A stretch of DNA of 64,000 nucleotides from an uncultured Acidobacteriota bacterium (GCA_964506795.1 CAZDMR010000001.1:87975-151974); one strand, 5' to 3'. Shown: positions 26,680 through 61,164, counted from the stretch's first letter. Notes: a model not told the origin generated them from the sequence alone. Translations and numbers: made by a program.

Positions 26680-26690
26680 GGTTTTCTCCT

Positions 26691-28221: not shown

Positions 28222-29418
28222 TTATCCGCGCTTTATCGCCGCCGCCATGGCGTCGGCGGCGGCTTTTGCCACGGCTTCGACATCCGCGTCGCTGAGCGTC
28301 CTGATCGAGCTGCGACTCGGATTGCGCGCGGCCGGAGGAGCCAGCGCAATCTCGCCCGGACGCTCCTCCTGATCCGGCGGCTCGCTCCCCCCTTTTTCAA
28401 ACCGGGCATCAGGCTGGCCAAGACGCTTTTTGATTTTGAGGAGATCCTCCCGCTTCTCCGGCGGTATCTTCACGTACGGGACTCCGAGCTGCCGGCTTAT
28501 CAACAGCGTCCAGCAATAGGTTTCGAGGTTCTCCGCATACCATTCGGCATGGGTGGGAGTATCGGCCCAACAGACAATTCCGTGATTCCCGAGCAGAATG
28601 GCGTTATGGTTTTTCACGAAAGGCAGAACGGTTTCCGCAAATTTTTTGGTGCCGGGAGTTTCATAGGGCGTGACGGCAACGCTGCCGACGAACACGTCAA
28701 ACTCCGGAATGACCGGCGTGGGGGGCACGCAGCCTGTAACCGCGTATGCCGTGGCATGCGGAGGATGGCAATGCACCACGGCCTTTGCCTGGGGCACCGC
28801 CTTAAAAATTTCGAGATGAAGATAAATCTCGCTGGTTCGTCGCAAGGGCCCCGCGATTTGGTTTCCATCAAGGTCAACCAGACAGAGATCTTCCGGTCTA
28901 AGATCCGCCTTGCTTAACAGCGTGGGCGTGCAAATCACCGCATTGCCGCCGATGCGGCAGGATATATTTCCTCCGTTGCCGTCCACGTAACTGCGCTCCC
29001 AAAGCTTGCGGCCGACTGCGCAAATTTCCTCTTTTACGGATCTCGCGTTGGATGAATAAAACAGGCCGGCCGTTTCCTCAGGAAAATCGTTGAGAGCGTG
29101 CGAATCAGCGCCCGGCTTTAAGCCGTCGGCAGGCAAAGCGATTTCCAAGGCATGAAGCACGCGCTCAAGAGCACCGTGAACCTGCGGGATCACATGCGAG
29201 CGGACGACATCGCCGCCGAGCGATTTTACGGCCGCCGCGCCGGCCTCCACGGCCGCACTCACCGCGCATGGGTCCCCGGCAATGAACGCCGTACATTGAT
29301 CGCCGCCGATTTGTTTCCATCCCTTGAATTCGACGCTTGCGGCCTTCAACATGGCGTCCGCCGCCTGAACCAGCATCACGAAACCCTTCGTTTCAATCAT
29401 TCCCAAAGCTTGCTTCAT
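28222..29418 (-). CDS. Fusion of an N-terminal BMC-H (microcompartment shell) domain to a class II aldolase (putative rhamnulose-/fuculose-1-phosphate aldolase) with a C-terminal encapsulation-peptide-like helix
   Basis: Residues 1-90, MKQALGMIETKGFVMLVQAADAMLKAASVEFKGWKQIGGDQCTAFIAGDPCAVSAAVEAGAAAVKSLGGDVVRSHVIPQVH, align nearly residue-for-residue with PduA/CcmK BMC-H. Residues ~120-330 match the class II aldolase fold (GGNISCRIG..., HCHPPHATAYAV, NHGIVCWADT). The tail has a Pro-rich linker followed by the amphipathic helix DVEAVAKAAADAMAAAIKRG. Confidence 0.85.
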   Translation of the reverse strand: MKQALGMIETKGFVMLVQAADAMLKAASVEFKGWKQIGGDQCTAFIAGDPCAVSAAVEAGAAAVKSLGGDVVRSHVIPQVHGALERVLHALEIALPADGLKPGADSHALNDFPEETAGLFYSSNARSVKEEICAVGRKLWERSYVDGNGGNISCRIGGNAVICTPTLLSKADLRPEDLCLVDLDGNQIAGPLRRTSEIYLHLEIFKAVPQAKAVVHCHPPHATAYAVTGCVPPTPVIPEFDVFVGSVAVTPYETPGTKKFAETVLPFVKNHNAILLGNHGIVCWADTPTHAEWYAENLETYCWTLLISRQLGVPYVKIPPEKREDLLKIKKRLGQPDARFEKGGSEPPDQEERPGEIALAPPAARNPSRSSIRTLSDADVEAVAKAAADAMAAAIKRG

Positions 29419-29522: not shown

Positions 29523-30836
29523 ATGAAACGCTTCCTGGTTCTTTTAGCTGTGGTTTTTTTGTCCGCTTCCCAGGCTGCTTCGCAACAAGAGGGGCAATGC
29601 ATGGTTTGCCACAAGCTTGTGTCTCCCGGTCTGTACAATCAATGGCACGAATCGCAGCACGCTGTTCACGGCGTGAGCTGTGTGGACTGCCACGGCGCCC
29701 AGCAAGGCGAAGAGGATGCTTTTGAGCATCACGGAGCCTTTATCGCCACGCTTGTAACTCCCCGCGATTGCGGACGCTGCCATACCAAGGAAGCCCGCGA
29801 AGTCCAGAATTCCTATCACGCCTCCGCCGGAGAGATTCTGCATTCGCAGGACGCGTATCTCGCCCACATAGCCGGCGGGCAGCCGGCAGCCGTCGCCGGC
29901 TGCGAAAACTGCCACGGCGCCCGCATTGTCATCGATCCCCATTCGCCCAACAGGCTTTCGAAAAAATCGTGGCCCAACTCCGGCATCGGGCGCATAAATC
30001 CCGACGGATCTAAAGGATCCTGCAGCGCCTGCCATACCCGCCATAATTTTACGAAGTCCCAGGCCCGCCAGCCGGAAAGCTGCTCCAAATGCCATCTCGG
30101 CCCCGATCATCCCCAAAAGGAGATCTACGAGGAGTCCAAACACGGCAATACCTATTACACAAATGTCAAAAAAATGAACTTGGATGCCGATCCGTGGGTG
30201 GTCGGGAAGGATTATTATGCCGCTCCAACCTGCGCGACCTGCCATATGTCCGCGACCTCCGTTCTGAAATCATCGCACGACGTCGGAGACAGAATCAGCT
30301 GGACCCTGCGGCCCGCGGTTTCCGTCCACAAGGATAATTGGCTCGCCAAGCGCGAGAATATGTTCACCGTCTGCCAATCATGCCATGGAAGCTCCTTTGC
30401 CAAGGGACATTATTACCAGTACGATGCCCTGGTTCGGCTCTATAACGGCAAGTTCGCGGAACCGGCGGCGGAGATCATGAAGCTTATCAGGGCTCAGAAG
30501 CTTCTGGAGAATCCGGCGGAATTCGGCAATAAAATAGAGTGGACCTATTATGAATTATGGCATCACGAAGGACGGCGGGCGCGGCACGGCGCGGCCATGA
30601 TGGGTCCGGACTACACCTGGTGGCATGGCATTTATGAAGTCGCCCAGCATTTTTATTTCAAATTCCTTCCGGAGGCGCGCGCATTCAACGATCCGAAAGT
30701 AAACGCGGCCATTGAAAAGCTTTTGAAAGAAGATCCCATGCATCAATGGCTGTCGCGCGATACCGAAACTCTTAAAAAAGCAATTCGCTCCGGCGACTTG
30801 CAGAAACAATACGACAAACTGTTCCAACAGGACTGA
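29523..30836 (+). CDS. Octahaem c-type cytochrome, secreted
   Basis: A signal peptide and 8 CxxCH motifs in 437 aa (CMVCH, CVDCH, CGRCH, CENCH, CSACH, CSKCH, CATCH, CQSCH). Confidence 0.85.
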   Translation: MKRFLVLLAVVFLSASQAASQQEGQCMVCHKLVSPGLYNQWHESQHAVHGVSCVDCHGAQQGEEDAFEHHGAFIATLVTPRDCGRCHTKEAREVQNSYHASAGEILHSQDAYLAHIAGGQPAAVAGCENCHGARIVIDPHSPNRLSKKSWPNSGIGRINPDGSKGSCSACHTRHNFTKSQARQPESCSKCHLGPDHPQKEIYEESKHGNTYYTNVKKMNLDADPWVVGKDYYAAPTCATCHMSATSVLKSSHDVGDRISWTLRPAVSVHKDNWLAKRENMFTVCQSCHGSSFAKGHYYQYDALVRLYNGKFAEPAAEIMKLIRAQKLLENPAEFGNKIEWTYYELWHHEGRRARHGAAMMGPDYTWWHGIYEVAQHFYFKFLPEARAFNDPKVNAAIEKLLKEDPMHQWLSRDTETLKKAIRSGDLQKQYDKLFQQD

Positions 30837-30843
30837 CAACCCC

Positions 30844-32424
30844 GTGTGGAAAACCTATTGGAAATTCATCCGCGCCCTGGCGGTCAACCGTTTGGGAAAA
30901 ATCGGCGTCCTTTTGGCTGCGTTGTCTTTTGTCATTTTCCTTCTACTCGAAGCCGCCCGTATCGCCGGCATCCTAAGGAGCGCCCGCATAGGATTGATGA
31001 CTTACATGGCGTTGCCGGCGCTCTTTATCATTGGATTGCTGCTTATTCCTTTAGGATGGGACCTGCTCCGGCGGCGGACCGGCGGGACGGTTTTACAGCT
31101 TCTCAACCGGAAGTTTGACAGCTCCGAACTGGAGGGCGGCTTTTTCGGTTCCAAGCTGGTTCTCAAGGCGGGCTTCCTCACGCTGGTCGGCCTCTTGTTC
31201 GTGATATTTGCGGGCGCCCGGATGCTTTCATTTATGGACCAGCCGCGTTTCTGCGGAACCGCGTGCCACAGCGTCATGAACCCTGAATGGGTGACTTTCC
31301 AGCAATCGCCCCACGCCAGTATTCGCTGTGTGGATTGCCATGTGGGAGAGGGCGTCGATGCGCTGGTAAAGAGCAAATTAAACGGGCTTTGGGAAATCCT
31401 ATCCGTGACATTGGACCTTCTGGAACGTCCGATTCCGACGCCTATTCACCAGCTGCGCCCGGCCCGCGAAACTTGCGAGAAATGCCACTGGCCGGATAAG
31501 TTTTATGGGACCCGGCTGAAGACCTACACTCGCTATCGCACGGACGAAGCGTCGACGCCAAGCTATACAACGTTAATGCTGAAGATCGATACGGGGAAGA
31601 AAGGCGAAAAAGCCGGGATTCACTGGCACATCGGCCCCACAAATCAGATCCGCTATTCTTCGGTGGACGATGAACGCGAAAAAATAATCCGCGTTGAAGT
31701 CCTTGAGCGCAGCGCCGTCCGCAAGCGTTTCTATAATTCCGAATTGGCCGGCGCCGACGGCGGGCTCGACAACGACATGCGCGTCATGGACTGCGTGGAT
31801 TGCCACAATCGCGCGACCCATATTTATGAGGATCCCGAGCAGGCGCTGGATGAGCGGATCTCCGCGGAACGGGTCGGCCGGAATCTGCCCTTTATCAAGA
31901 GAGAAGCGCTCAGGGTCCTCACCAATGATTATCCCGATAAGGAAGCGGCAATGGCGGCCGTTGAAAGGCAGATCAAAAGCTTCTACCGCCGCTATTATCC
32001 GGAGCTGGCGGCATCGGAAGCGGCAAATATCGAGACATCCATCCGGACGCTGCAATCGATATACGGGCGCAACATTCACCCGGAAATGAATATTGAATGG
32101 GGAAGCTACTCCAATCACATCAACCATGATAAAAACGGAGGCTGTTTCCGCTGCCATAATGAAAACATGGTGTCCGACGACGGGGAACATATCTCCTATG
32201 AATGCACGTCCTGCCACTCCTTCCTGGCCTACGGTGAATCCGATCCCCTGAAGTACCTCATGCCGGTCCGGACTCGCGACCGCGAATCCGAAATGCACCG
32301 GTATTTGCGCGAAGAATTTCTAGACGGCTACGCCAAATACCGCGCGCGGCCGAGAATCCGAATCCACCCGAATTGTCTGTTGTTTCTCCGTCAAAGGCCG
32401 TGTTCGATAAGACGGCTTACTTAA
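30844..32424 (+). CDS. Membrane-anchored hexahaem cytochrome c: a NapC/NirT-like tetrahaem module plus a C-terminal dihaem extension
   Basis: 2-3 N-terminal transmembrane helices and 6 CxxCH motifs. The first four have NapC/NirT-like spacing (CGTACHS, CVDCHV, CEKCHW, CVDCHN). Two more follow (CFRCHN, CTSCHS). Confidence 0.8.
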   Translation: MWKTYWKFIRALAVNRLGKIGVLLAALSFVIFLLLEAARIAGILRSARIGLMTYMALPALFIIGLLLIPLGWDLLRRRTGGTVLQLLNRKFDSSELEGGFFGSKLVLKAGFLTLVGLLFVIFAGARMLSFMDQPRFCGTACHSVMNPEWVTFQQSPHASIRCVDCHVGEGVDALVKSKLNGLWEILSVTLDLLERPIPTPIHQLRPARETCEKCHWPDKFYGTRLKTYTRYRTDEASTPSYTTLMLKIDTGKKGEKAGIHWHIGPTNQIRYSSVDDEREKIIRVEVLERSAVRKRFYNSELAGADGGLDNDMRVMDCVDCHNRATHIYEDPEQALDERISAERVGRNLPFIKREALRVLTNDYPDKEAAMAAVERQIKSFYRRYYPELAASEAANIETSIRTLQSIYGRNIHPEMNIEWGSYSNHINHDKNGGCFRCHNENMVSDDGEHISYECTSCHSFLAYGESDPLKYLMPVRTRDRESEMHRYLREEFLDGYAKYRARPRIRIHPNCLLFLRQRPCSIRRLT

Positions 32425-33763
32425 CGCTTAAAACCAGAGAAGCGCTGTTAACCGGACGCGGTTCGCAGGAGTAGGAGGGAAGTTCCATCAGTTTGGCCAC
32501 GGAACTGGGCACCAGGCTGTAATAAAGCGTCGCCGATATGTTTACTTGCTGCGCGGAAAGCTCCTTGGGAACATTCCATGTATAGGTTTCCACTTTGGTT
32601 TCCATCGGCCCTATGCGATAGTCGATTTCGTTGTTTTTCGCCGTGAACCATTGGCAAATGGTCATCCGGCCCTGCGGATCGAAATACGGCCGCCGGAAAA
32701 TGCGGGATCCGTCAGGCACGTCCCCGTCGCGGAGAACTCCTTTATATCCGGGCGCGTCCATGATTTCTCCCATGGCCTGGTAGGCGAGGGCGTTGGAATC
32801 AGCGATGGTGAACTCTTCGCCGGGGAACCCTTTCTTATCAACGGGAATGCGATAGACGCGGCCCTCATGGTCCTTTCCTTGGACCTCCAGCCACAGCATC
32901 CTTTCTTCAGAGGATCCCGAGGGGATAAAGTGCCCGGCTTTGCCGTTATAAAGCACGGCCCGGATTACGACTTTGGACCCAGCCTTCACTTCGCTTTTGT
33001 CTGCGTATAGCGCTAGGTCTACGCTTCCTTTCAACTTTTGGCTGAAATGGGGGCCGTGAAATACATGATGGGCGATATCGTCCCTTTGTTTTCCGCCGAC
33101 GGACGATTTGCCCGGAGCATGGTGCATATGGCAATCCTGGCACCTGATCCCCTGCCCGGCGTACGGACTCGCCTTCCATTCCCGATAGGTTTCCTTAACC
33201 CAGGCGCCGTAAGGACTTTTCTCGTCATGGCAGGTGGCGCACAACTCGGGGCTCGCCGTAAAAGCCGAATATTCTGTTTCGTGAAACCGCGATTCTGCGT
33301 CCTTGCGGACCCCGTATTTTGTTTTGCCGGGATTTACCGTATAGCTGAAGTTGAAAGGCTCTTTTCCCGAGGACCCCGTCATGCTGTGGCACACGTCGCA
33401 GCTGACCCCCTCGTTGACACGGGTGCCTGCGGCGGGCGGCTTCGGCGGGATGTCGCCGGTCAAAAAAGCGAGCGGTCCGTGGCAAGCAATGCAATCCGAT
33501 TTAACTCCGGCGACTTTTTCGAGCTTGAACGCATGGGGCAAAGCCAGCTTGAAATACTCTGCGTCATCCCACGGATGAGTAAAGGATTGGGACATCAGGC
33601 TCTGTTGCCACTCCTGATAAATTTCCTTGTGACAGGCGCCGCATTGCATCGGTTTGCTGAAATCGTCGTAGGCAAAGTCCGCCTTTTCCGCAGCCTGCCA
33701 GGAAGGCAGGCCTATAAAAATCAAGGCGGCCGCCAAACCGAATGACAGCCATGTCCTTTTCAT
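32417..33763 (-). CDS. Pentahaem c-type cytochrome, secreted
   Basis: A signal peptide (MKRTWLSFGLAAALIFIGLPSWQA) and 5 CxxCH motifs. The start at ATG 33763 follows GGAGGGGG. The 3-prime end overlaps the convergent cytochrome gene by 8 nt. Confidence 0.8.
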   Translation of the reverse strand: MKRTWLSFGLAAALIFIGLPSWQAAEKADFAYDDFSKPMQCGACHKEIYQEWQQSLMSQSFTHPWDDAEYFKLALPHAFKLEKVAGVKSDCIACHGPLAFLTGDIPPKPPAAGTRVNEGVSCDVCHSMTGSSGKEPFNFSYTVNPGKTKYGVRKDAESRFHETEYSAFTASPELCATCHDEKSPYGAWVKETYREWKASPYAGQGIRCQDCHMHHAPGKSSVGGKQRDDIAHHVFHGPHFSQKLKGSVDLALYADKSEVKAGSKVVIRAVLYNGKAGHFIPSGSSEERMLWLEVQGKDHEGRVYRIPVDKKGFPGEEFTIADSNALAYQAMGEIMDAPGYKGVLRDGDVPDGSRIFRRPYFDPQGRMTICQWFTAKNNEIDYRIGPMETKVETYTWNVPKELSAQQVNISATLYYSLVPSSVAKLMELPSYSCEPRPVNSASLVLSVK

Positions 33764-33830
33764 AATCCCCCTCCAAGGCTTGACCCGCATTATTCATGAA
33801 CCTTCTGCCGCGGTTCGCGGAATAAGCGGT

Positions 33831-35369: not shown

Positions 35370-36338
35370 TCAAAAGGGGCAGTATGTTTCACATAGGAAT
35401 TGGGAAATATCAGAAACGTTTGCGCTGCTGCCTGATGCCGCTTGCCTCAGGTTCACCAGGCATATGGGGCACATGGTGACGATGCGGTCCCCCACGGCGG
35501 TCAGCTGTTCCACGCGCTGCTTGGCGATTCTGTGTGCCTCGCTCGGGAACAGAGTTTCAACAGGGCCGCCGCAGCAGAATGTATTGCGGCCCGAATACTC
35601 CAAATCAGGAAGCCCGGCGCCGGCTTTGCGCAGCAAATCCCGAGGCTGCTCCACCATATCCTCATAACGCGCATAGACGCAGGAATCATGCACGACCACG
35701 TCGGCGTCCAGCTTGCGCAACGTGCTTAATTTGCGTTCCGCAAGAACTTCAATATAGCTTTGCACTTGCAGATTAAAATCCTCGACCGTCGACGGGAAAA
35801 CGCTTCTGAGCATATTTGTGGTGTGCGGATCCACCGTTATCACGCGCTTCACATTATGCTTTTTGAACAGTTGATGGACCTTGAGCGCATGTTCCTTGAA
35901 AGCGGCCATGATTCCTTCGTCGTAAGCCAGCGTCCCCAGATAGAGTTCCTCGTCGTACAAATAACCGAAATCAACGTCGGCCGCTCTCAGAAGGAGGGCG
36001 ATCTTGCGGAGCAATTCGTTGAATTCCGCCTCATCCTTTGAAGACACCATCAAAGGCGTCAACATTGAAAAATCGGCGATCTTGTTCGCAGCCCGCCCTA
36101 TTCCGGAGAGGCGGGTGATCGAGGAATTCTCAAACCGAGCCGTTAATTTCCCAAGGGCGAGAAGGGAAGGCATCAACTGATACATGTGGCCCGTATATAT
36201 AATCGTTCTGCCGCCGACGGGGATATCCAGTCCTTTAGCCCAAGCCGTCAGCGCCCGCGAGGGAAGCGGTAAAATACTCCCCCGCTTTCTCAGATTATCC
36301 GCCAGTATTCCCAGAATCGTTCCAGTCGGTAAAGGCAT
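35370..36338 (-). CDS. HdrB/GlpC-like CCG-domain protein (first CCG domain degenerate, second intact)
   Basis: The C-terminal CCG domain is intact (HDSCVYARYEDMVEQPRDLL...GRNTFCCGGP). The N-terminal repeat keeps the fold signature but has no Cys (TIIYTGHMYQLMP). Confidence 0.7.
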   Translation of the reverse strand: MPLPTGTILGILADNLRKRGSILPLPSRALTAWAKGLDIPVGGRTIIYTGHMYQLMPSLLALGKLTARFENSSITRLSGIGRAANKIADFSMLTPLMVSSKDEAEFNELLRKIALLLRAADVDFGYLYDEELYLGTLAYDEGIMAAFKEHALKVHQLFKKHNVKRVITVDPHTTNMLRSVFPSTVEDFNLQVQSYIEVLAERKLSTLRKLDADVVVHDSCVYARYEDMVEQPRDLLRKAGAGLPDLEYSGRNTFCCGGPVETLFPSEAHRIAKQRVEQLTAVGDRIVTMCPICLVNLRQAASGSSANVSDISQFLCETYCPF

Positions 36339-36340
36339 AG

Positions 36341-36649
36341 CTAAGTCTCTAAACTATATAACTTCCTATTGATATAACAGCGAAGGCATCTCACATTATC
36401 AGCGATGTGCACTTTCGCAGGGCAGTTTTCTTCGCACATTTTGCAGAGCAGACATGAAAAGACAGTCTCCGTGTTCTCTAAAATCTTGTCTTCCAAGCCA
36501 AGCAGTGCGTAACGAAACAAGCGCCTGGGAAGGAGATTGAATCCGACCGGGCAAACCGCGGTGCAAACTCCGCAGTGCATGCAGGCGGAAGCGTTGAAAT
36601 CTTCGGAACACTTCATTTCATCCAGAAACGATGAGTTTACTTTTGCCAT
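36341..36649 (-). CDS. HdrC-like 2x[4Fe-4S] ferredoxin
   Basis: CMHCGVCTAVCP and CLLCKMCEENCP motifs in 102 aa. Lies 2 nt upstream of the CCG protein. Confidence 0.8.
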   Translation of the reverse strand: MAKVNSSFLDEMKCSEDFNASACMHCGVCTAVCPVGFNLLPRRLFRYALLGLEDKILENTETVFSCLLCKMCEENCPAKVHIADNVRCLRCYINRKLYSLET

Positions 36650-36658
36650 GGTGGCTTT

Positions 36659-36907
36659 CTATTCCTTTTCCTTTGCCTGGTAAAAGCAGTAACCGTTTTC
36701 GTCCGGGTCCCCTTTTTCCTCCACAAGCCCGTATCTCCACATCCCCATTATCCACATCGTCACTTCGCGGGAAGGGGCTCCGAGAGTTTGCGCAATTTCC
36801 GGGATGGTCATTGCTTTTTTGTTGATGATAGAGAGGATGGCGTCTTTCATGACCATTTCATCTCTCATGATTTCGGAAATCTCGCGGTTTGTCTGATTAG
36901 TGCTCAT
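36659..36907 (-). CDS. Small (82 aa) winged-helix-like protein of unknown function inside the Hdr-like operon (DsrD-like fold is possible)
   Basis: The ORF is tightly packed between hdrA-like and hdrC-like genes, with 9-10 nt gaps on each side. It has a helix-turn-helix-like segment (IPEIAQTLGAPSREVTMWIMGMWRYGLVEE). Confidence 0.5.
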   Translation of the reverse strand: MSTNQTNREISEIMRDEMVMKDAILSIINKKAMTIPEIAQTLGAPSREVTMWIMGMWRYGLVEEKGDPDENGYCFYQAKEKE

Positions 36908-36916
36908 CGTATCTTC

Positions 36917-38629
36917 CTACGCTAATGCATCGATTGTCGCCGTGATCTGCTTATCCGTGTAACCCTTCAGATCAATGGCATCCTGGGGGCAGACCGGGAT
37001 ACAGGCCCCTCCGCCTTTGCATAGACTGCTGTCTATCCGGGCAACTTCCTTGTCTCCGGCGGCAATCTTCGTTATGGCATCATACTGGCAGGCGGCGACG
37101 CATTCGCCGCACCAGGTGCATTTTTCAGCATCCACTTCGGCGATAAAAGGATCGAGATCGACATAACCTTTCATCAATAACCCGGCGCTCTTGGAAGCGG
37201 CGGATAAGGCCGACGCAACACTTTCGGGCAGATTCTTTGGCCCCTGCGCGGTTCCGGCGATAAAAATTCCATCCACGACCGTTTCCACCGGCCTGAGCTT
37301 GGGATGGATTTCATTAAAGAAGCCGTCCTTGCCCACCGGCAATTTCAGAACATCGATGAGTTCTTCATTCTTTCTCGGAACCATGCCGACAACGAGCACC
37401 ACCATATCGGCGGGAATCTCCACATCCTCACCCGATAGAAGCCGATCCGATACGGTGACGCAAAGCTTTCCGTTCGCGCGTTTGACCACAGGCGGTTTAT
37501 CCGGCTCGTAACAGAGGAACGCGGATCCTTTGGCGCACGCTTCGTCGTAAAGCAGTTCATATTGGCCGTAGGTCCGCATATCCCGATAAAGGTGGAACTG
37601 ATGTATGTCCGGATCCGCCTTGTGAGCGCATAGCGCCGTGTGCACGGTGGTCGTACAGCAGTATCTGGAGCAGTAAAGGTTTTTCCCTCCTTCATTGGGA
37701 TTCTGCCTGCTTCCAACACAGTAGATATAGACGATGTCCTTAACGCGGCGGCCGTTATACATGATGGCGCCGTCGGATTTATCGATTAATTCGCGAAATT
37801 CCGGGAGCAACAGAACTCCCTCTTCGCCGTAGCCGTATTCCCCTTTGGCCGGCTGGTAAACCTCAAATCCGGTGGTAACGACGATGGCTCCCACATTCAG
37901 CTGCAACGAGTCGTTGTCCGGCAGTTTTATTTTTACGGCGAAATTGCCGATGCTGCCTTTCTTTTCCACGACCTCCGCGTTGGTAAAAACGGTTACGTTT
38001 TCGTTCCCGCTTATTTGTTCCTTCAGTTTTCCGATGATTTCGAATCCCAGCTTGTCGTGTGGGAACATTCTTCCCCACTTTGCCGTCCAACCGCCGACTT
38101 GCCCTGTTTTTTCAACAACAAACACATGCAATCCGAGATCGGCCAACGCCAAAGCGGAGCGCAATCCGGCGACTCCTCCCCCGACGACAAGCACCTTGGG
38201 AGTGGTCTCCATCCTAAAACTGCTGAGAGGTTCGCTGTTGCGGCATCGGGCGATACCCGCCCTGACAAGATGGATGCCTTTTTCGGTAGCGTGCTCGCGT
38301 TCCGCCCGATGAACCCAGGAGCATTGTTCCCTCAAATTAACCTGCACATACATATAGGGATTGAGCCCCGCCCGTTCAGCCGCGCCCCTGAACGTATACA
38401 GATGGAGCTTAGGAGAGCAGGAAGCAACCACCATGCCGTCCAGCTTTTCGGAATTGATATCGTCGATGATTTCTTGCTGCGCGGCGTCGGAACAGGTGAA
38501 CATGCTCGTTTTGGCGAGAACGACTCCCTCTTCGTTCTTGACCGCATCCCGCACTTTCTCCACGTCTACATAGTCCGAAATGTTTCCGCCGCAATGGCAG
38601 ATGTAAACGCCTATCCGTCTTTGATTCAT
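36917..38629 (-). CDS. hdrA: HdrA-like flavoprotein (N-terminal CxCG 4Cys cluster, FAD domain, C-terminal 2x[4Fe-4S])
   Basis: IGVYICHCGGNIS...CSPKLH matches the HdrA N-terminus. The FAD motif VLVVGGGVAGLRSA is present. C-terminal ferredoxin motifs are CTWCGECVAACQ and CKGGGACIPVCP. Confidence 0.75.
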   Translation of the reverse strand: MNQRRIGVYICHCGGNISDYVDVEKVRDAVKNEEGVVLAKTSMFTCSDAAQQEIIDDINSEKLDGMVVASCSPKLHLYTFRGAAERAGLNPYMYVQVNLREQCSWVHRAEREHATEKGIHLVRAGIARCRNSEPLSSFRMETTPKVLVVGGGVAGLRSALALADLGLHVFVVEKTGQVGGWTAKWGRMFPHDKLGFEIIGKLKEQISGNENVTVFTNAEVVEKKGSIGNFAVKIKLPDNDSLQLNVGAIVVTTGFEVYQPAKGEYGYGEEGVLLLPEFRELIDKSDGAIMYNGRRVKDIVYIYCVGSRQNPNEGGKNLYCSRYCCTTTVHTALCAHKADPDIHQFHLYRDMRTYGQYELLYDEACAKGSAFLCYEPDKPPVVKRANGKLCVTVSDRLLSGEDVEIPADMVVLVVGMVPRKNEELIDVLKLPVGKDGFFNEIHPKLRPVETVVDGIFIAGTAQGPKNLPESVASALSAASKSAGLLMKGYVDLDPFIAEVDAEKCTWCGECVAACQYDAITKIAAGDKEVARIDSSLCKGGGACIPVCPQDAIDLKGYTDKQITATIDALA

Positions 38630-41334
38630 CTATTCGCTCTCATTCTTTCCACGTATATGGCGGCCTGCACCGCCGCGGCTCCTGCATGGGCGATGGTATC
38701 GGGAATATCGCGCGCAGCCGTGGCCGAGCCGGCGGCAAAAACGCCTTCAATACTTGTCTGTCCCGGGTTGACATCCGCCTGTGTTTCCCGGACCCAGCCG
38801 CCCTCATCCGTTTCAAGGGCTTCGCTTTTAAAGACCCCAACGGCGCTGGTATCGGGAAGCAGTCCCACAGACAGAACAACCAGATCGTGCTCCGCCTGTT
38901 TCAAGCTTCCTTCTCCGCCGATGTCCTCGTAATGGACGATGAGATTGCCCCCTTTGGTTTCTTCTATCCTGGCGACTCTGCCCTTCGTCATATTGACTCC
39001 CATCGCTTTCGACTGTTCGTAAAACTCGTCGTAACCCTTGCCGAAGGCGCGGATGTCGATATAGTAAATGGTAACTTCCGCGAGAGGGAGCGCTCCCATA
39101 ATAAGCTGCGCCTGTTTGAGGGAATACATGCAGCATACCCTCGAACACTGGCGATTATTTACGGTGTAATCGCGAGAACCGGTGCAAAGCACGTAGGCGA
39201 TGTTATCCGGCATTTTGCCGTCCGACGGGCGAAGCACCCGGTTATAGGGACGCGTCGGGGCCAGGATACGATCCATCTGCATGGCCGTGATCACATTCGG
39301 ATAGCGCCCGTAACCGTAAGGTTTTTTCAGGGATGCGTCAAAAAGCTGAAATCCCGTCGAGATGATCACGCTGCCGGCTTCTGCGATTTCCTCTTTATCC
39401 TGCATATCGAATTCAATGGCATTCGCGGGACAGGCGCGGACGCACTCGCCGCATTCCGAACAGGATCCGCAGTCAAGGCATCGCGAGGCATTATAACGGG
39501 CATCTTCTTCGCTTAGCGTGGATTCGACCTCGGCAAAACTCCGCGACCGCTCAGCGGCCGGCAACAGCGCCGCCGCCCTGGACGGCTTCAAAGAAATCGA
39601 CTTCCAGCGCGCGATAACCGATTCCCTGTCCACAGCGGGCAAAGGCTCGAAATAGGCGTCCTCCAGAGGCTCTCCCCGCATCTGCCGGTCCATGAAAAAA
39701 GCCGCTCTTTTACCCTGGCCGATTGCGTCGATAATCATAGACGGTCCGGTAACATTGTCCCCGCCGGCAAAAACCGAGGGCATTGAAGTTTCCAGCGTTT
39801 TTTCATTTACCTTGATGGTTCCATTGCGATTCAATTCAAGCTCGCCGCGAAACGGCGAAGTCGTCGGCTTGAGCCCGATAGCCTTAACGACGATATCCGC
39901 CGCAGTGAGCTGTTCCGAACCTTCAATCGGCACCGGACGGGGCCGGCCTCCGGCATCCGGTTCGCCCAATTTCATCGACAAGCTTTCCACCCCCACCAGC
40001 CGTCCATCTATGCCGATGAAACGATTGGGATTCCTGAGCGTACGAAGCTCCATCCCTTCTTCCAATCCGGCCTCTACTTCCCAGGAATGAGCGGGCATTT
40101 CCGCCCGGCTGCGCCGGTACTCCACAATGACTTTCCGGGCTCCCAAACGGATCGCCACCCTGGCCGGATCCATACAGGCATTCCCTCCTCCGACCAGGAG
40201 TACGGTCTTCCCCTTAACATGGGACATTTTTCCTTCAAACGCCGCCTTGAGGAAAGACATGCAATCCATGACCCCTTCCAAGTCTTCGCCGGGCAGGGAC
40301 ATCCTCTGCGGTTCCCAGGCGCCGACCGCCACAAAAACGGAGTCAAACCCTTGCTCCTGCAAATCTTTCAAAGAGCTAACAGGAGAATTGGTGCGGATAG
40401 CAACCCCAAGAGCGGTAATGTTTTTGATATCTCTATCCAGCACACGCTTCGGCAGCCTGTATTCCGGGATTCCGTACCGCAACACGCCGCCCGCATGCTC
40501 CTGCGATTCGAAAATGGTAACTTGATATCCGCGCCTCGCCAGATGGTAAGCGGCCGAAAGCCCGGCCGGGCCCGATCCCACAACGGCCACCTTCTTGTCC
40601 AGGCGCTTTTCGGGGATTCCGTACTCCGGTTCCGGATGCCGTTGATAGTAATAGTCCACCATGAAACGTTTGATGGCCCGGATGGAGACCGTGCCGTCCA
40701 GAGCGGCGCGCGTGCAGTTTTGCTCGCATGGCGCGTAACAAGCCCTGCTTAGAGTGCCGGGGAGCGGCGCGTCTTCCATGTGAAGGCGGAATCCCTCCTC
40801 GTATTTTCCGCTTCGGACCAGGGAGACAAAACCATGGGCCTTGACTCCCGCCGGACAGGCAAAAGTGCACGGCGAGGTACCCTGCCGGTCCAGGATTGCT
40901 TTTTTCGGCACCGCCTGGGAGTATGGGATATAGGCCGCGCGCCGAGCCACCAATTGGAAATTAAACTGGTCGGGGACGGCAACCGTACAGGCTTCTTCGC
41001 ACTTTGAACACCCGGTGCATGCCGACGGATTCACATAAGTCGGCTTCTTGCGAATTTTTATGATAAATTCCCCGTTCGCCCTTTTGGCTATCTCTTTGAC
41101 TTCCGAATAAGTCAGGGTCGTAATGTTCGGGTGGTGGCTGGTGGCCGCCATTTTGGGCGTGGAAATGCAACTCGCGCAATCCAGCGTGGGGAAAACCTTG
41201 CTTAGAAGCACCATTTTGCCCCCGATACTGGCATCTTTTTCCACCAGCAACACCTGATACCCCATATCTCCCAAAGTCAGAGCCGACTCCATGCCGGCTA
41301 TGCCTCCGCCGACGATTAGCATGTCATGCTTCAT
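38626..41334 (-). CDS. HdrA-like FAD protein with an inserted GltD/NfnB-like NAD(P)H-binding module and a ferredoxin domain (902 aa natural fusion)
   Basis: The HdrA N-terminal half (MLIVGGGIAGMESA...DCASCIS) is followed by a GltD-like 2-cluster region (CTFACPAG, CYAPCEQNC) and a second Rossmann motif VAVVGSGPAGLSAAYHLARRG...GGVLRYGIPEYRLPK. Then comes a 2x4Fe4S domain (CLDCGSCSECGECVRACP), then the HdrA C-terminal half (CSRVCCMYS...GVFAAGSATAARDIP). Overlaps the downstream hdrA start by 4 nt. Confidence 0.75.
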   Translation of the reverse strand: MKHDMLIVGGGIAGMESALTLGDMGYQVLLVEKDASIGGKMVLLSKVFPTLDCASCISTPKMAATSHHPNITTLTYSEVKEIAKRANGEFIIKIRKKPTYVNPSACTGCSKCEEACTVAVPDQFNFQLVARRAAYIPYSQAVPKKAILDRQGTSPCTFACPAGVKAHGFVSLVRSGKYEEGFRLHMEDAPLPGTLSRACYAPCEQNCTRAALDGTVSIRAIKRFMVDYYYQRHPEPEYGIPEKRLDKKVAVVGSGPAGLSAAYHLARRGYQVTIFESQEHAGGVLRYGIPEYRLPKRVLDRDIKNITALGVAIRTNSPVSSLKDLQEQGFDSVFVAVGAWEPQRMSLPGEDLEGVMDCMSFLKAAFEGKMSHVKGKTVLLVGGGNACMDPARVAIRLGARKVIVEYRRSRAEMPAHSWEVEAGLEEGMELRTLRNPNRFIGIDGRLVGVESLSMKLGEPDAGGRPRPVPIEGSEQLTAADIVVKAIGLKPTTSPFRGELELNRNGTIKVNEKTLETSMPSVFAGGDNVTGPSMIIDAIGQGKRAAFFMDRQMRGEPLEDAYFEPLPAVDRESVIARWKSISLKPSRAAALLPAAERSRSFAEVESTLSEEDARYNASRCLDCGSCSECGECVRACPANAIEFDMQDKEEIAEAGSVIISTGFQLFDASLKKPYGYGRYPNVITAMQMDRILAPTRPYNRVLRPSDGKMPDNIAYVLCTGSRDYTVNNRQCSRVCCMYSLKQAQLIMGALPLAEVTIYYIDIRAFGKGYDEFYEQSKAMGVNMTKGRVARIEETKGGNLIVHYEDIGGEGSLKQAEHDLVVLSVGLLPDTSAVGVFKSEALETDEGGWVRETQADVNPGQTSIEGVFAAGSATAARDIPDTIAHAGAAAVQAAIYVERMRANR

Positions 41335-41764
41335 TAGATTTTTCCTTCGCGTCGGCTTCGAGAAGCCTTAACGAGTTCTTAAAATTTTCCATATGGGATA
41401 CAAAAGACTCCGCGCAAACAGAACAAATGGCCGCCATTTTAACCCGCTGCGCGCTGTGTCCATTTTCTTCAAGAAGCTTTTGCGCCCTTTGCGTCAAGGC
41501 GGCCGTCCGTTCGGTGCAGTCCTGGGTATACACGCAATCGCTTCCATCCGCCGCAATGAACACGCCGTCGAATCCCGCATTTACAGCGCGGAGGACCCAA
41601 CTCGGCTTTATGCTGCTTGAACAACGCAACGGTATGACAAACACCGAAGGCGAATAATGCAAGTGAGAGCTTCCGGCTAAATCAATCCCGGGATCCGAAA
41701 TTGTCTCCGTCGAGAACACAAGGATCTTGGGATCTTTCCCCTCGCTCTTTTCCCCTTCCGCCAT
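41324..41764 (-). CDS. MvhD/FlxD-like domain protein lacking the canonical first Cys pair
   Basis: KILVFSTETISDPGIDLAGSSHLHYSPSVFVIPLRCSSS...GFDGVFIAADGSDCVY aligns with MvhD (KIVVFACNWCSYAGADTAG...VMCSGR...GADGVLVGGCHFGDCHY). The CNWC pair is replaced by STET, and one of the two distal Cys is Ala. Confidence 0.6.
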   Translation of the reverse strand: MAEGEKSEGKDPKILVFSTETISDPGIDLAGSSHLHYSPSVFVIPLRCSSSIKPSWVLRAVNAGFDGVFIAADGSDCVYTQDCTERTAALTQRAQKLLEENGHSAQRVKMAAICSVCAESFVSHMENFKNSLRLLEADAKEKSNEA

Positions 41765-52796: not shown

Positions 52797-53147
52797 TTAA
52801 CGGCGGATCATCGAAGCAAGCTTCTCTTCCTCTTTCAAACGGCGGTACAGAATCTTGCGCATCAGCGCGCAGGTTTTGTGAATTTCGGGATCGGTGATGT
52901 GGTACAACTGCTGCCTTCCGTCCCGCCTCGATTCCACGATTCCCGCATGGACCAGCAGTGACATATGCTTGGATAGGTTTGCCTTGGACACTTCAAACTC
53001 CGCGATCAAATCGCAGGCGGAGGCTTCTTCGGCATTGAGCCGGTCCACAATGGCAAGCCTGAGCGGATGAGCCAGGGCCTTGCAAATCCTGCATTGCATT
53101 TCAAGGATCCTATGCTGAGCCGTTTTCTCCGCCTGCAAAGGTTTCAT
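52797..53147 (-). CDS. ArsR/SmtB-family metalloregulator
   Basis: ILKALAHPLRLAIVDRL...ACDLIAEFEVSKANLSKHMSLLVHAGIV. This is the first gene of the TolC-MFP-RND operon. Confidence 0.85.
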   Translation of the reverse strand: MKPLQAEKTAQHRILEMQCRICKALAHPLRLAIVDRLNAEEASACDLIAEFEVSKANLSKHMSLLVHAGIVESRRDGRQQLYHITDPEIHKTCALMRKILYRRLKEEEKLASMIRR

Positions 53148-53442: not shown

Positions 53443-53678
53443 CCGCCCGCCGTTTTCCCGCGAAAACGCTCCTGCCGGGAATTATCTTGATTGTAAGTCC
53501 GTCGAATCCCTATCATATAAATTATTGCCCCCCTAAGAGCCTGTCCGCATCTCAGAAAGGAGATTTTATGGCGGAAGAAATGGAAGTCGGTTGCGCCCGT
53601 CCGACGGGCGGACCGGTCGGCGAACAACCTTCAGAAATGCCAACGCCCGCAACTCAATCCGAAAAGGAGAGCAAGCCT

Positions 53679-54287
53679 ATGATTCAAGTCGGCAAAAAAG
53701 CACCGGATTTCATCGCCCCAGCCTATCAAAAGGGCAAATTCATTTCCGTAAAGCTCTCAGAATATCTCGGCAAATGGGTTCTGCTTTGTTTCTATCCCGG
53801 CGATTTCACGTTTGTATGAGCGACCGAGATTTCGGCGGTCGCCGAAAAATATCCGGAGTTCCAGAAACTCGGCGTCGAAGTGCTCTCCATGAGCATCGAC
53901 AGCATTTATGTGCATAAAATGTGGGACGATAACGAGCTGTCCAAAATGGTAAACGGAGGCGTCCCCTTTGCGATGCTTTCCGACGCAGGGGGGAGGGTAG
54001 GCAAGGTATATGGAATCTATGATGAGGACGCCGGCGTGGAAACCCGGGGCCGTTTTATTATAGATCCCGACGGCATCGTCCAAGGCTTCGAGGTATTGAC
54101 TCCGTCCGTCGGCCGGAATATCAACGAATCCTTCCGCCAGGTGCAGGCTTTTCAGACGGTGAGAAACAGCAAGGGCAAGGAAGCAACCCCCTCGGGCTGG
54201 AAACCGGGCAAACCGACACTCAAACCGGGTCCGGATTTGGTGGGCAAAGTTTGGGAAGTTTGGAAAACAAAAATGGCCTTCGACTGA
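53679..54287 (+). CDS. Selenocysteine-containing peroxiredoxin (AhpC/Prx1 family; in-frame TGA at 53817-53819 read as Sec)
   Basis: [11 protein letters not shown]...[52 protein letters not shown] aligns with AhpC FYPLDFTFVCPTEI, with TGA exactly at the peroxidatic Cys codon. The frame continues without interruption to TGA 54285-54287, giving 202 aa. The RBS AAGGAGA lies 8 nt before ATG 53679. An alternative ATG at 53568 would add a 37-aa disordered extension. Confidence 0.85.
53820..53842 (+). ncRNA. SECIS-like hairpin immediately 3-prime of the in-frame UGA
   Basis: GCGACCG-AGAUUUCGG-CGGUCGC forms a 7-bp GC-rich stem starting at +1 after the UGA. Position and size are consistent with a bacterial SECIS. 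Confidence 0.55.
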
Positions 54288-54389
54288 TTTTCCCCGGTTT
54301 TGCCGCGGCAGGGCGAATGAAGGCATTCGCCCTGCCCTCTACCGCATTTTCCGCCGGCAGATCCGCAATGCGATTTACGGCCGCAGACG

Positions 54390-57069: not shown

Positions 57070-57296
57070 TCCGGATTAGCCCCCCCTGTTTTGCAAAGAC
57101 GTTATAGATAAAGAGTCCCCTCCGTCAGGCGGCCTGGGGCGCAATTCGCTGAAATTGAAGCATAAATTCCCGGATAAAGATGGAATTTCCGCCGCCTGGA
57201 GAGACTCCCTATTGCGCGGCGGATGCCGATGCTATACTGGCGGGAGCGGCGTGAATTCGGTATGTTTTCGCAGGGGAAAGGAGCGAAGGATAGAAA

Positions 57297-58583
57297 ATGG
57301 CGGCTGGCGCTTTCGATGAACTGAAATGGCGGGGATTGATCTACGACAACACCGAAAACGTCCCCGAAATGCTTTCCTCCGGGCCGGTGACCGTTTATAA
57401 CGGCTTCGACGCAACCTCCGACAGCCTGCATGTCGGGCATATGGTTCCGCTGCTGGCCCTGGCTCGATTGCAGCGGTTCGGGCATATCCCCATCGCCGTC
57501 GCCGGGGGCGGGACGAGCATGATCGGCGATCCCAGCGGCAAAAAGGACGAACGCCAGCTTCTTTCGCGCGGCGCCATAGACGCCAACATCGAGATCATCA
57601 AGACGCAGCTTGCTCAATTCCTCGATTTCAACAATAAAACCAATCCGGCCCTCCTCGTGAACAACGCCGACTGGCTTCTTTCGCTGAACCTGGTCGATTT
57701 CCTCCGCGATATCGGCAAGCATTTTACGGTGAATTACATGATCAACAAGGATTCCGTAAAGATGCGCCTCGATCGCGAAGACGGCATTTCCTTCACCGAG
57801 TTCAGCTACATGCTGCTGCAATCCTACGATTTTCTTCATTTGCACGATCGCTTCGGATGCATGCTTCAGACCGGCGGCAGCGACCAGTGGGGAAACATTA
57901 CGGCGGGCGTTGAATTGATCCGCCGCAGGCGGGGAAAGAATGCGGGCGCCCTGGTGTATCCCCTCATCGTCAAGGCGGACGGCACCAAATTCGGGAAAAC
58001 GGAATCCGGCGCCGTATGGCTTTCGGCGCAGCGCACGTCGCCGTACCGTTTCTATCAATTCTGGCTGAACACGGACGACCGCGATGTAATCGGCTATTTG
58101 AGATTCTTTACCTGGCTCGGCGAAAACGATATCCGTGAGCTTGAAGCCGCGGCGGCGCAACGTCCCGAACAACGGGAAGCGCAACGCCGTCTGGCGGCCG
58201 AGATGACCCGCATGGTTCATAACGAAACGGCGCTTAAGAAAGCGGAACAGGCATCCCAGGTTCTCTTCGGAGGGGACATCGCGGGCCTGACGGCGGTCGA
58301 GGTTTCCGAAATCTTCGCCGATGTGCCTTCGAGCCAGATGTCCGGTTCGCAGCTGCGGGGCGGCGGTCTTCCGGCGCCGGAGCTCCTTCTGGCTTGCGGG
58401 ATGGCCGCTTCCAAGGGAGAGGCCCGGCGCGCGCTGGAATCCGGCGGCATTTACATCAACAACCGCCGCATCAATGACGCGGCATCGAGGATTACGCTTG
58501 AGGACGTCATCGACAATCAATTCATCGTTATGCGCAAGGGCCGCAAAAACTATTTGCTGGTCCGCGTAGTTCCGGGCGATTGA
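57297..58583 (+). CDS. tyrS: Tyrosine--tRNA ligase
   Basis: The HIGH-type motif ([11 protein letters not shown]), the KMSKS-type motif (KFGKTESG) and a C-terminal S4 domain are present. 428 aa. Confidence 0.92.
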
Positions 58584-58764
58584 TCCCACTGCGCGCTTCC
58601 GGAGAGCGCCGCGGCTTTCGCGGCAACGCCGTTCGGCAAATCAATTCATAAAGCGGCCGTCTCGATGCATACGGCCGGTTGAAGGCATGGAAACAAGCGG
58701 GAAAGCAATCCAGTAGTTTCGTTCCTTTTTATGGAGGACACCCATTAAACGGGGGGCGGGCGAT

Positions 58765-61164
58765 ATGAGCGACTTCGAAAAGCTGGGCCAGTTTTATTTG
58801 GGCAGGCGATTCAATCCTTCGACCGGCAGCTTGGGAAAAGACCCGGTCCTGTATGACTCAAAGGACCTTGTCACGCACGGAGTCTGCGTCGGCATGACCG
58901 GCAGCGGAAAGACCGGTTTGTGCATCGCGCTGTTGGAAGAGGCCGCTATCGATAATATTCCTTCGATCGTCATCGATCCAAAAGGCGATATGACGAACCT
59001 GCTGCTGAATTTTCCGAACCTCAGCGAGGCTGATTTTCTCCCCTGGATCAATGCCGATGACGCCGCAAGGGCCGACAAATCCCCCGAGCAATATGCCGCC
59101 GAACAAGCCGAGATCTGGAAGAAGGGATTGCAGCAATGGGGTCAGGACGGGCGCCGCATACTCAAGCTGGCGCAATCGGCCGACTTCGCTCTCTATACCC
59201 CCGGAAGCACCTCCGGAATGCCCGTATCGGTTCTCAACAGTTTCAACTGCCCCGCCGCTGCGGTTCTGGAAGACCGGGAAGCAACGGCCGATTTGATATC
59301 CTCGGCGACCACCGGCCTCCTGGGACTGGCGGGAGTCGCGGCGGATCCCGTCAGCAGCCGCGAACACGTCCTGATATCAAACATCATCCAGCATAGTTGG
59401 AAACAGGGGCATGACATCGATATCGCCTCGTTGATCCGCTCGATTCAGTCGCCTCCCTTCGAGCGGGTGGGCGCTTTCCCCACCGACTCTTTTTTCCCCG
59501 AGCGGGAGAGGTTTGAATTGGCTTTGAAGCTGAACAATCTCCTTGCCGCCCCCGGATTCGGCGCCTGGCTGGAAGGCGAACCTTTGGACGCAGGGCGCTT
59601 TCTGCATACCGCCGAAGGCCGTCCGCGCGTATCGATTTTCAGCATCGCTCATCTAACCGATGCAGAGCGCATGTTTTTCGTGACGCTCCTTCTGAATCAG
59701 ACGGCAGCCTGGATGCGAAGCCAGCCCGGGACCACAAGCCTGCGCGCTCTGATTTATATGGATGAAGTTTCCGGCTACCTTCCTCCCGTCGCCGAACCCC
59801 CTTCCAAGAAGCCTTTAATGCTTCTTTTCAAGCAAGCCCGCGCCTTCGGCCTCGGCGTGCTGCTTGCCACGCAGAATCCCGCGGATCTGGATTACAAAGC
59901 GCTGTCCAACGCGGGGACTTGGTTTATCGGACGTCTGCAGACGCCTCAGGACATCGACCGGCTGATTAAAGGACTGGGCGCTGATTCCGAGGAATCCGAA
60001 GAGAATTTGCGCAAATTGCTCGGTTCCTTGGGCAAGCGCGTCTTCCTGATGAAAAATATTCACGAAAACGCCTTGGAAGTTTTCTACACGCGCTGGTGCC
60101 TGTCCTATCTTCGAGGGCCGCTCGCGCCGGCTCAGATAAAGCTGTTGAGCTCCGGCAAAAAGGAGAGGCATCGGGATATACCCGGGAACGCCGCTCCGCA
60201 CTCGGCAAATGTCCCCGGCGCCCTTGCGGCAGACCGTCCGAGCCTGCCTCCATCCGTCCCCGAGTTCTTTTTGCCGCTGCGAGGGGCCAAACCTTCCGGC
60301 GCCTCCGTCTTATACAAACCCGTAATCTGCGCTTTCGGCAATGTAAATTTCGCCGGCAGCCTGAACCTCCGCAAAACATTCATGGCGGACATCGCCGGGG
60401 AGGTCTTCTCTTTGAATTGGGATGAATCCCAGGCCGGCGATTTTGATGAAACTCAGATGGAAAAGGAGCCCATCGCGCCGGCGGAGTTCGCGCCGCTGGC
60501 CGCGGCAGCCTCCAAGCCCGAGAACTATAAGGTCTGGAGCCGGGACTTTGAAAATTTCCTTTATCGCACCGCAGCGATCGAAATGTACCGGAGCCCGGAA
60601 TTCAAAACAACTTCAAATCCCGGAGAATCCGAGAGCGATTTCCGCATCCGATTAAGCCAGCTCGCGCGCGAAAAACGGGATTTGACGGTGGAAAAACTGA
60701 GGGACAAATACGGGGCGAAAATCGCCCGCCTCGAGGATCGAATTCGGCGTGCGGCACAGCGCCTCGAAAAGGAAAAATCCGACGTCCAGCAGGCCGGCGT
60801 TCATACGGCTATTTCTCTCGGCGCAACCTTGCTCGGCGCCTTCCTGGGCCGCAAAGCTTTTTCCTCGGGAACGCTCGGGCGCGCATCCACGACCATGCGA
60901 AGAGGGATGAAGACCGCAAAGGAACGATCCGATATCGAAACCGCTTCTGAGGATCTGCAATTCCTTCAGCGGCAGAAGGAAGATCTTGAGGCCGAATTCA
61001 ATTCCGAAATAAAGGCGTTGGAAGGATCCACCGATCCCCTCCAGCAGAAAATTCAAACGGTCGTCCGGCGCGCAAAAAAGGCCGATATTTCCATCTCCCT
61101 GGTTACGGTTCTATGGCTTCCGCACTGGAAGACCCCTCAAGGCACGATTCATCCGGCCTATTAA
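58765..61164 (+). CDS. HerA/FtsK-like (DUF87/DUF853-type) P-loop NTPase with a long C-terminal coiled-coil region
   Basis: Walker A motif CVGMTGSGKTGL followed by IVIDPKGD. The 799-aa protein ends in coiled-coil segments (EKLRDKYGAKIARLEDRIRRAAQRLEKEK). Confidence 0.6.
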   Translation: MSDFEKLGQFYLGRRFNPSTGSLGKDPVLYDSKDLVTHGVCVGMTGSGKTGLCIALLEEAAIDNIPSIVIDPKGDMTNLLLNFPNLSEADFLPWINADDAARADKSPEQYAAEQAEIWKKGLQQWGQDGRRILKLAQSADFALYTPGSTSGMPVSVLNSFNCPAAAVLEDREATADLISSATTGLLGLAGVAADPVSSREHVLISNIIQHSWKQGHDIDIASLIRSIQSPPFERVGAFPTDSFFPERERFELALKLNNLLAAPGFGAWLEGEPLDAGRFLHTAEGRPRVSIFSIAHLTDAERMFFVTLLLNQTAAWMRSQPGTTSLRALIYMDEVSGYLPPVAEPPSKKPLMLLFKQARAFGLGVLLATQNPADLDYKALSNAGTWFIGRLQTPQDIDRLIKGLGADSEESEENLRKLLGSLGKRVFLMKNIHENALEVFYTRWCLSYLRGPLAPAQIKLLSSGKKERHRDIPGNAAPHSANVPGALAADRPSLPPSVPEFFLPLRGAKPSGASVLYKPVICAFGNVNFAGSLNLRKTFMADIAGEVFSLNWDESQAGDFDETQMEKEPIAPAEFAPLAAAASKPENYKVWSRDFENFLYRTAAIEMYRSPEFKTTSNPGESESDFRIRLSQLAREKRDLTVEKLRDKYGAKIARLEDRIRRAAQRLEKEKSDVQQAGVHTAISLGATLLGAFLGRKAFSSGTLGRASTTMRRGMKTAKERSDIETASEDLQFLQRQKEDLEAEFNSEIKALEGSTDPLQQKIQTVVRRAKKADISISLVTVLWLPHWKTPQGTIHPAY

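Follow-up and report, generated by a model that had tools for sequence, protein, structure and literature searches.

A probable selenocysteine-encoding prxU gene with a covarying SECIS minihelix in an uncultured Acidobacteriota bacterium

The prxU Locus and Its Reading Frame

The window analysed here is a stretch of 64,000 nucleotides from an uncultured Acidobacteriota bacterium, and all positions are counted from its first letter. In the mechanical ORF list of the window, one ORF ends at 53819 and another starts at GTG 53880, and the two are joined through a TGA codon into a single frame running from 53568 to 54287, in which the TGA at 53817–53819 is the sole internal stop. The initial annotation had taken both ORFs as one gene of the AhpC family, and this is borne out by the continuous frame and by an HMM domain that spans the TGA. 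The gene is called prxU below, and its main features are as follows.

53568–54287, plus strand: prxU coding sequence, 239 codons including Sec84, with its own TGA stop at 54285–54287 (single-frame translation)
53556–53562, plus strand: Shine-Dalgarno-like AAAGGAG, 5 nt upstream of ATG 53568, read from the sequence
53817–53819, plus strand: UGA codon, assigned to Sec84, the peroxidatic residue of P77-x-x-x-T81-x-x-U84, by alignment to solved peroxiredoxins

The start at ATG 53568 is backed not only by the Shine-Dalgarno-like motif but also by homologues that share the N-terminal arm of the protein from Met1 onwards. Around the TGA, the motif reads P77-G-D-F-T81-F-V-U84. When Cys is placed at the TGA, the protein can be aligned from one end to the other with solved peroxiredoxins of the typical 2-Cys type, and the TGA falls in the column of the Cys in FTFV-C-PTEI, so that the exact coincidence with the peroxidatic Cys (FTFV-C-PTE) that had been proposed for this codon is confirmed. 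In addition, 1917 bp of the Logan assembly of SRR8556479, which is maybe from the same sample as the window, are identical to this region, TGA included.

prxU is a solitary gene, flanked by a divergent regulator of the ArsR family (52797–53147, minus strand; HTH_5/HTH_20) and a convergent DUF6616 gene, and no neighbouring gene of the window is conserved beside prxU in 80 related loci. Its GC3 is 0.61, against 0.665 ± 0.035 for the long ORFs of the window, and horizontal acquisition of the gene is possible. A 189-aa antisense ORF (53757–54326, minus strand) overlaps prxU and has tblastn matches in all 80 loci; it is the shadow of the conserved prxU frame and no independent gene. Downstream of the stop lies one further element.

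54307–54336, no strand assigned: perfect 13-bp inverted repeat GGCAGGGCGAATG-AAGG-CATTCGCCCTGCC, 20 nt past the stop, where prxU and the DUF6616 gene converge

From its sequence, this inverted repeat is likely to serve as a bidirectional transcription terminator; it carries no T-run, and the consensus terminator scan made no call at it.

Family Assignment and Fold

The protein is matched by the curated NCBIfam equivalog model NF040737 (peroxi_PrxU) with E = 3.6e-125 and 416.3 bits, the cut-off being 270, and its residues 7–236 are aligned to profile positions 2–233 of 233. The AhpC equivalog TIGR03137 gives 182.5 bits, below its cut-off of 272, and in Pfam the protein contains PF00578 (AhpC-TSA) followed by PF10417 (1-cysPrx_C). 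That is to say, the marks of PrxU are found together, i.e., a score at the equivalog level, Sec at the peroxidatic position of PxxxTxxU and a C-terminal end that lacks the resolving Cys, while the assignment to the typical 2-Cys/AhpC type (TIGR03137) fails on the score below the cut-off and on the Thr at the resolving position of EVCPA. The window gene is thus very probably a genuine Sec-encoding orthologue of prxU, as far as can be judged from the sequence.

The structural comparison was made with the AlphaFold model of P0014, a natural Cys-form homologue that is 69% identical to the window protein. The core of this model is confident, and its TM score is about 0.9 to 5zte (PrxA of Arabidopsis), 7kiz (human Prx2) and 1n8j (AhpC of Salmonella). 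The typical 2-Cys peroxiredoxins (1n8j, 7kiz/1qmv and 5zte) therefore resemble the window protein in fold (TM about 0.9), in sequence (40–44% identity), in the PxxxTxxC/U motif, in the conserved Arg and in PF10417. However, the window protein differs from them in that its peroxidatic residue is Sec in place of Cys, its C-terminal resolving position is occupied by Thr and not Cys, position −10 is Cys where they have Phe, and an extra N-terminal arm with a Cys is present.

PrxU of Eubacterium (Peptoclostridium) acidaminophilum corresponds to the "Prx, TxxU" family in the selenoproteome surveys of Zhang and Gladyshev. The window gene shares with this family Sec at PxxxTxxU, Thr in place of the C-terminal resolving Cys, the existence of natural Cys-form orthologues, and a SECIS element inside the ORF, directly 3′ of the UGA. 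The difference lies in the N-terminal region: the window protein and most of the relatives found bear an arm of about 37 residues with an invariant Cys (GCxRP), whereas the characterised PrxU of E. acidaminophilum is reportedly about 203 residues long, so it would be without the arm. Two reviews (PMC9312934, PMC13188914) list "Prx, TxxU/PxxxTxxU" among the experimentally verified bacterial selenoproteins, and the verification is attributed by them to the work of Sohling et al. on E. acidaminophilum (2001, Biol Chem 382:979).

Conservation of the TGA among Homologues

In the genomes of the 80 closest species, the peroxidatic codon is TGA in all 80. These species include members of Thermodesulfobacteriota, Spirochaetota, Calditrichota, KSB1, Cloacimonadota, Chitinispirillaceae, Anaerolineae and Thermodesulfovibrio. 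Moreover, in a scan with one genome per species, at least 597 species-representative genomes were found to encode relatives, and the earlier statement that Sec-peroxiredoxins are rare in bacteria is wrong.

The best 120 database homologues are 59–86% identical to the window protein. In the Sec column, W is printed in 107 of them, G in one and Cys in 10, where W and G represent TGA as read by gene callers in genetic code 4 or 25 (the codon was checked directly for P0006). Counted in this way, 108 Sec-forms stand against 10 Cys-forms, an example of the latter being P0048 of Desulfoferula mesophila, and the comparison with Cys-containing orthologues that had been recommended at the outset thus finds Cys at the Sec position in 10 of the best 120. 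The Trp and Gly mistranslations come from metagenome gene callers that changed to code 4 or 25 on short contigs.

The reading through the TGA is also reflected in the divergence of the coding sequence. When prxU is compared with its six closest sequences, pS is 0.65–0.9 (saturated) and pN is 0.05–0.10 on either side of the TGA, a sign of strong purifying selection. Over the 20 codons from the TGA to 53880, protein identity is 91%, and no restart codon is conserved. Orthologues with a true stop and a separate downstream start had been named beforehand as evidence against a selenoprotein; the TGA is present in 80 of 80, and the restart site is unconserved. In the window, TGA is an ordinary stop for 10 of the 35 long ORFs, and it also ends prxU itself. 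A scan of the window for other in-frame TGA joins gave 39 candidates; by inspection of the flanking sequence only, none except prxU resembles a split gene, and the rest have the appearance of neighbouring genes or of frames that do not code.

SECIS Element

The mRNA region behind the UGA was analysed in an alignment of 63 nt around the TGA from 81 sequences, which is free of gaps and in which the conserved helix occupies columns 23–30 and 33–40. The corresponding features in the window are given below.

53820–53829, plus strand: spacer of 10 nt separating the UGA from the SECIS minihelix, as given by the position of the conserved helix
53830–53847, plus strand: SECIS minihelix UUUCGGCG-GU-CGCCGAAA, with the 5′ arm at 53830–53837, the apical GU at 53838–53839 and the 3′ arm at 53840–53847

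The innermost pair (53837–53840) closes a GGUC tetraloop. In 80 distinct sequences, 99.4% of the cells of the 8-bp helix are paired, and compensatory changes occur at four pairs. For example, columns 27–36 contain all four Watson-Crick types (GC 47, AU 26, UA 5, CG 2), columns 24–39 contain UA 57, CG 18 and AU 3, and columns 30–33 contain AU 45 and GC 34. None of 500 shuffles reaches the observed pairing values, and the pairing falls to 39–69% when the 3′ partners are slid by 1–3 columns. RNAalifold independently gives the same helix (53830–37/53840–47). The covariation falls on the third positions of codons for Ile/Val, Ser, Ala, Val, Ala and Glu, and therefore the pairing is kept by selection on the RNA and not on the protein. 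The loop nucleotides G 53838 and U 53839 are invariant in 81/81 sequences, and in the window copy all eight pairs and the loop GU are intact. In other words, a conserved, covarying stem-loop within about 10–40 nt 3′ of the UGA, an exposed apical G-U and Cys-containing orthologues, by which bacterial selenoprotein genes are recognised, are all present. No curated family of Rfam matches the SECIS region.

The initial annotation had noticed a different SECIS-like hairpin, as follows.

53820–53842, plus strand: 7-bp helix of GCGACCG (53820–26) with CGGUCGC (53836–42), present in this sequence

This GC helix is physically present right after the UGA as described, but it is not the conserved element. 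Of its seven pairs, the two that vary are open in 36/80 and 47/80 sequences, the other five are fixed by conserved codons, and it overlaps the SECIS minihelix so that both cannot form together; it was rejected as the SECIS on these grounds. Single-sequence folding is no better than that of shuffles (z = −0.58 for 76 nt and z = −1.34 for 40 nt). Thus, the search for a SECIS in the region 3′ of the UGA did yield a covarying minihelix, the stem of which starts 10 nt after the UGA, and the conserved helix is that at 53830–53847 rather than the unconserved one first noticed.

The best-known point of comparison is the SECIS of E. coli fdhF, a minihelix with a GGUC loop that is bound by the C-terminal domain of SelB, with its GU at +23/+24 and with a bulged U in the 5′ arm that is not universal among bacteria. 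The prxU element is similar in being a hairpin that follows closely on the UGA inside the coding region, and it closely resembles that of fdhF in the 10 nt from the UGA to the stem, in a GGUC-type loop that exposes G-U, and in the place of this GU, at +22/+23 from the U of the UGA. It differs from fdhF in that the 5′ arm contains no bulged U and the 8-bp stem is perfect.

The Cys-forms provide a further comparison. In three of them (L083, L085 and L086), 3–4 of the 8 SECIS pairs are broken. The loop GU comes from the GUN codon of Val91, a residue found in 108/108 Sec-forms versus 5/10 Cys-forms (Fisher p = 1.4e-6). In a fourth Cys-form (L082; 3001–3612 of JGI 3300038988 Ga0416724_13405, codon TGC), a perfect SECIS minihelix is retained, which suggests a fossil SECIS and a recent switch from Sec to Cys. 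The annotated start of L082 is too far downstream, and its GCxRP arm runs on in frame upstream.

Sec Machinery and Other Genes of the Window

In the 64-kb window, no tRNA gene was found, including that of tRNA-Sec (selC), and neither the 30 largest ORFs nor motif scans of the window gave a match to SelA, SelB or SelD. The remark that the window holds no sel genes is thus correct for the tRNA search, for these ORFs and for the motif scans alike. Since sel genes seldom lie beside selenoprotein genes, their absence from 64 kb says little, and from the intact UGA, SECIS and ORF we infer that the Sec machinery is present in the organism. An AIRS-family gene near the Desulfoferula Cys-form was considered as SelD and discarded; by sequence it is PurM, and it has no match in the window.

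Other genes of the window are recorded here as observations in their own right. Four genes form a cluster at 35370–41764 on the minus strand. One product, of 322 aa, is HdrB-like with a CCG domain, two, of 570 and 902 aa, are HdrA-like flavoprotein/ferredoxin proteins, and the fourth, of 146 aa, is an MvhD/FlpD protein. In other organisms, HdrA and MvhD count among the selenoprotein families; the ORFs of the window are uninterrupted, so they are presumably Cys-forms. The PFOR of the window is 100% identical to the database protein P0121, and among named organisms its nearest relative is that of Thermoanaerobaculum (71%), a weak hint at an Acidobacteriota-like organism. At 25411–29418 (minus strand), an L-rhamnose isomerase, an FGGY kinase and a 398-aa fusion of a BMC shell domain with a class II aldolase suggest a microcompartment-linked rhamnose/fucose pathway, and a BMC gene and an aldolase gene are also located near prxU in the related locus L087. 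Three adjoining multihaem cytochrome c genes (Multi-haem_cyto, NapC/NirT-like and cytochrome c3/c554/MtrC-like) occupy 29523–33790. The ORFs at 21504–23075 (minus strand), 57102–58589 (minus strand) and 58765–61164 (plus strand), of 523, 495 and 799 aa, are without a Pfam hit at E ≤ 1e-5.

Alternative Explanations of the In-Frame TGA

Taken together, the match to the PrxU model, the TGA in 80/80 closest species and the covarying SECIS support the core of the original reading, namely a selenocysteine peroxiredoxin. It has nevertheless been considered that prxU could be a dead or silent gene, acquired horizontally by an organism without Sec machinery, in which the TGA terminates translation and leaves an inactive fragment of 83 residues. 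The failure to find sel genes and tRNA-Sec in the 64-kb window, the lack of synteny with related loci and a GC3 somewhat under the window mean would agree with it. However, the 155 codons downstream of the TGA are intact, with 84–89% protein identity to the closest homologues and low pN, the eight SECIS pairs and the loop GU are preserved, neither a frameshift nor an extra stop has appeared, and sel genes seldom adjoin selenoprotein genes anyway, so that a silent gene is an improbable account. A sequencing or assembly error in place of a true TGC or TGT (Cys) codon would need one base change only, and Cys-forms do exist (10/120); against it, the same TGA is found in the Logan assembly of SRR8556479 over 1917 identical bp and in 80/80 related species, and the SECIS is intact here and degraded in 3/4 of the Cys-forms examined. 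An error of this kind is therefore regarded as extremely improbable.

Two further explanations concern the way in which the codon is read. Gene callers list two ORFs, as they would for a genuinely split gene with two polypeptides and a restart at GTG 53880, but the 20 codons ahead of this GTG are 91% conserved in protein and code for the beginning of the active-site helix, the 81 sequences have their first start-like codon behind the TGA at seven different offsets, and one HMM domain spans the TGA; hardly any weight can be given to a restart. As for a genetic code in which TGA stands for Trp (code 4) or Gly (code 25), which is what the W printed in 107 database homologues and the G in one would literally mean, it is disfavoured because TGA is a normal stop in the window (10/35 long ORFs) and for prxU too. 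Moreover, Cys is otherwise the only residue that natural homologues have in this column, the classic mark of a Sec/Cys pair, an enzyme with Trp or Gly as its peroxidatic residue would be inactive, and in P0006, where the W is a TGA, the gene is otherwise normal. A reassigned code is accordingly close to negligible in probability, and the preferred reading of the codon is still Sec.

Cysteines and the Resolving Residue

Besides Sec84, three positions of the protein are of interest for the resolving step, together with the arm in which one of them lies.

53568–53678, plus strand: N-terminal arm, residues 1–37, with a conserved M-x-E-E-x-K-x-G-C-x-R-P head and then a variable linker predicted to be disordered
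53592–53594, plus strand: Cys9 codon TGC, in the GCxRP motif at the tip of the N-terminal arm
53787–53789, plus strand: Cys74 codon TGT, 10 residues ahead of Sec84, within the beta-strand LLCFYP
54186–54188, plus strand: Thr207 codon ACC, at the canonical position of the C-terminal resolving Cys, by alignment to 4fh8 and 5zte

At the C-terminal site, the motif GEVCPAGW of 4fh8 and 5zte corresponds to KEATPSGW in the window protein. Position 207 is Thr in 77/81 genomic sequences, with Cys in none, and Thr in 107/121 database sequences. From the aligned sequences, Thr at the C-terminal resolving position is a family trait.

Cys9 is present in 105 of the 106 arm-bearing database homologues and in 81/81 genomic sequences, and Cys74 in 118/120 database homologues and again in 81/81 genomic sequences, the residue at the latter position being Phe in solved Prx1/AhpC proteins. 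Exactly two Cys plus Sec are contained in 76/81 proteins. The Cys-forms retain both Cys9 and Cys74, and the individual cases are as follows: in the Cys-form P0087/L082, Cys74 is lost (Gly) and the arm Cys is kept, the arm being missing from its database entry only through a mis-called start, and L086 is a member of the family that is genuinely without the N-terminal arm. In the AlphaFold model of the 69%-identical Cys-form, the pLDDT of the arm is about 63 for residues 1–18 and below 50 for residues 19–35.

The initial annotation had reported the absence of a resolving Cys and, from this, a "1-Sec" peroxiredoxin. The first part stands as far as the C-terminal site is concerned, where EATPS with its Thr is indeed found. 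The "1-Sec" part is unproven, because a 1-Cys type would have no second conserved Cys, and here two other cysteines, Cys9 and Cys74, occur in every one of the 81 genomic sequences. On this pattern of conservation, either Cys9 or Cys74 could resolve the selenenic acid.

Between them, Cys9 on the mobile arm is preferred as the resolving residue, a choice held with rather less than even confidence, the alternatives being Cys74 or direct reduction by an external thiol. In its favour are the invariance of Cys9 within an arm that otherwise varies and is modelled with low confidence, the exact two Cys plus Sec in 76/81 proteins, and the loss of Cys74 but not of the arm Cys in P0087/L082; members such as L086 that have no arm speak against it. 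There is also an analogy with the mobile C-terminal tail that bears the resolving Cys in typical 2-Cys enzymes. It may tentatively be proposed that in arm-bearing PrxU the N-terminal arm has taken over from the C-terminal tail as the site of the resolving residue, with a selenenylsulfide between Cys9 and Sec84 formed within or between subunits. A parallel may be drawn with the mammalian selenoprotein MsrB1, in which the resolving Cys is in the N-terminal region (PMC1278935): it is also a Sec redox enzyme whose resolving Cys is placed elsewhere than in its Cys-containing homologues, although its fold and chemistry are unrelated, and in PrxU the arm Cys is kept by Sec-forms and Cys-forms alike. 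In the literature searched, a resolving Cys in an N-terminal arm was not found described for Prx1/AhpC-type peroxiredoxins.

Proposed Decoding and Catalysis

In the proposed process, the UGA at 53817–53819 would be read as Sec during translation. The mRNA just 3′ of it would be folded into the minihelix 53830–53847 with the GU presented at the apex, and, according to established bacterial SECIS biology, this minihelix would recruit SelB-GTP together with Sec-tRNA(Sec) to the ribosome. In the finished protein, the selenolate of Sec84 in the PxxxTxxU site is expected to attack the hydroperoxide, giving a selenenic acid. Since the usual C-terminal resolving Cys is a Thr, this selenenic acid would most likely be resolved by one of the two other conserved Cys; with Cys9 in this role, the flexible arm would form a selenenylsulfide with Sec84, which may then be reduced by thioredoxin. 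In terms of function, the sequence makes the product of prxU most likely a thioredoxin-dependent peroxiredoxin of the AhpC/Prx1 structural class with Sec as the peroxidatic residue.

Significance

The PrxU family, known since 2001 and covered by a curated NCBI model, is widespread, and the window gene is a correction of annotation with nothing new at the level of the family. In place of the ORFs that end at 53819 and start at 53880, a single selenoprotein gene should be annotated. The Sec codon is also mistranslated in 108 of the 120 closest database homologues (107 as Trp and one as Gly), which amounts to a systematic mis-annotation of selenoproteins. For the organism, the result on prxU suggests that UGA is decoded as Sec, and for the family, the one point that stands out is the invariant Cys in the N-terminal arm, which may act as the resolving residue.
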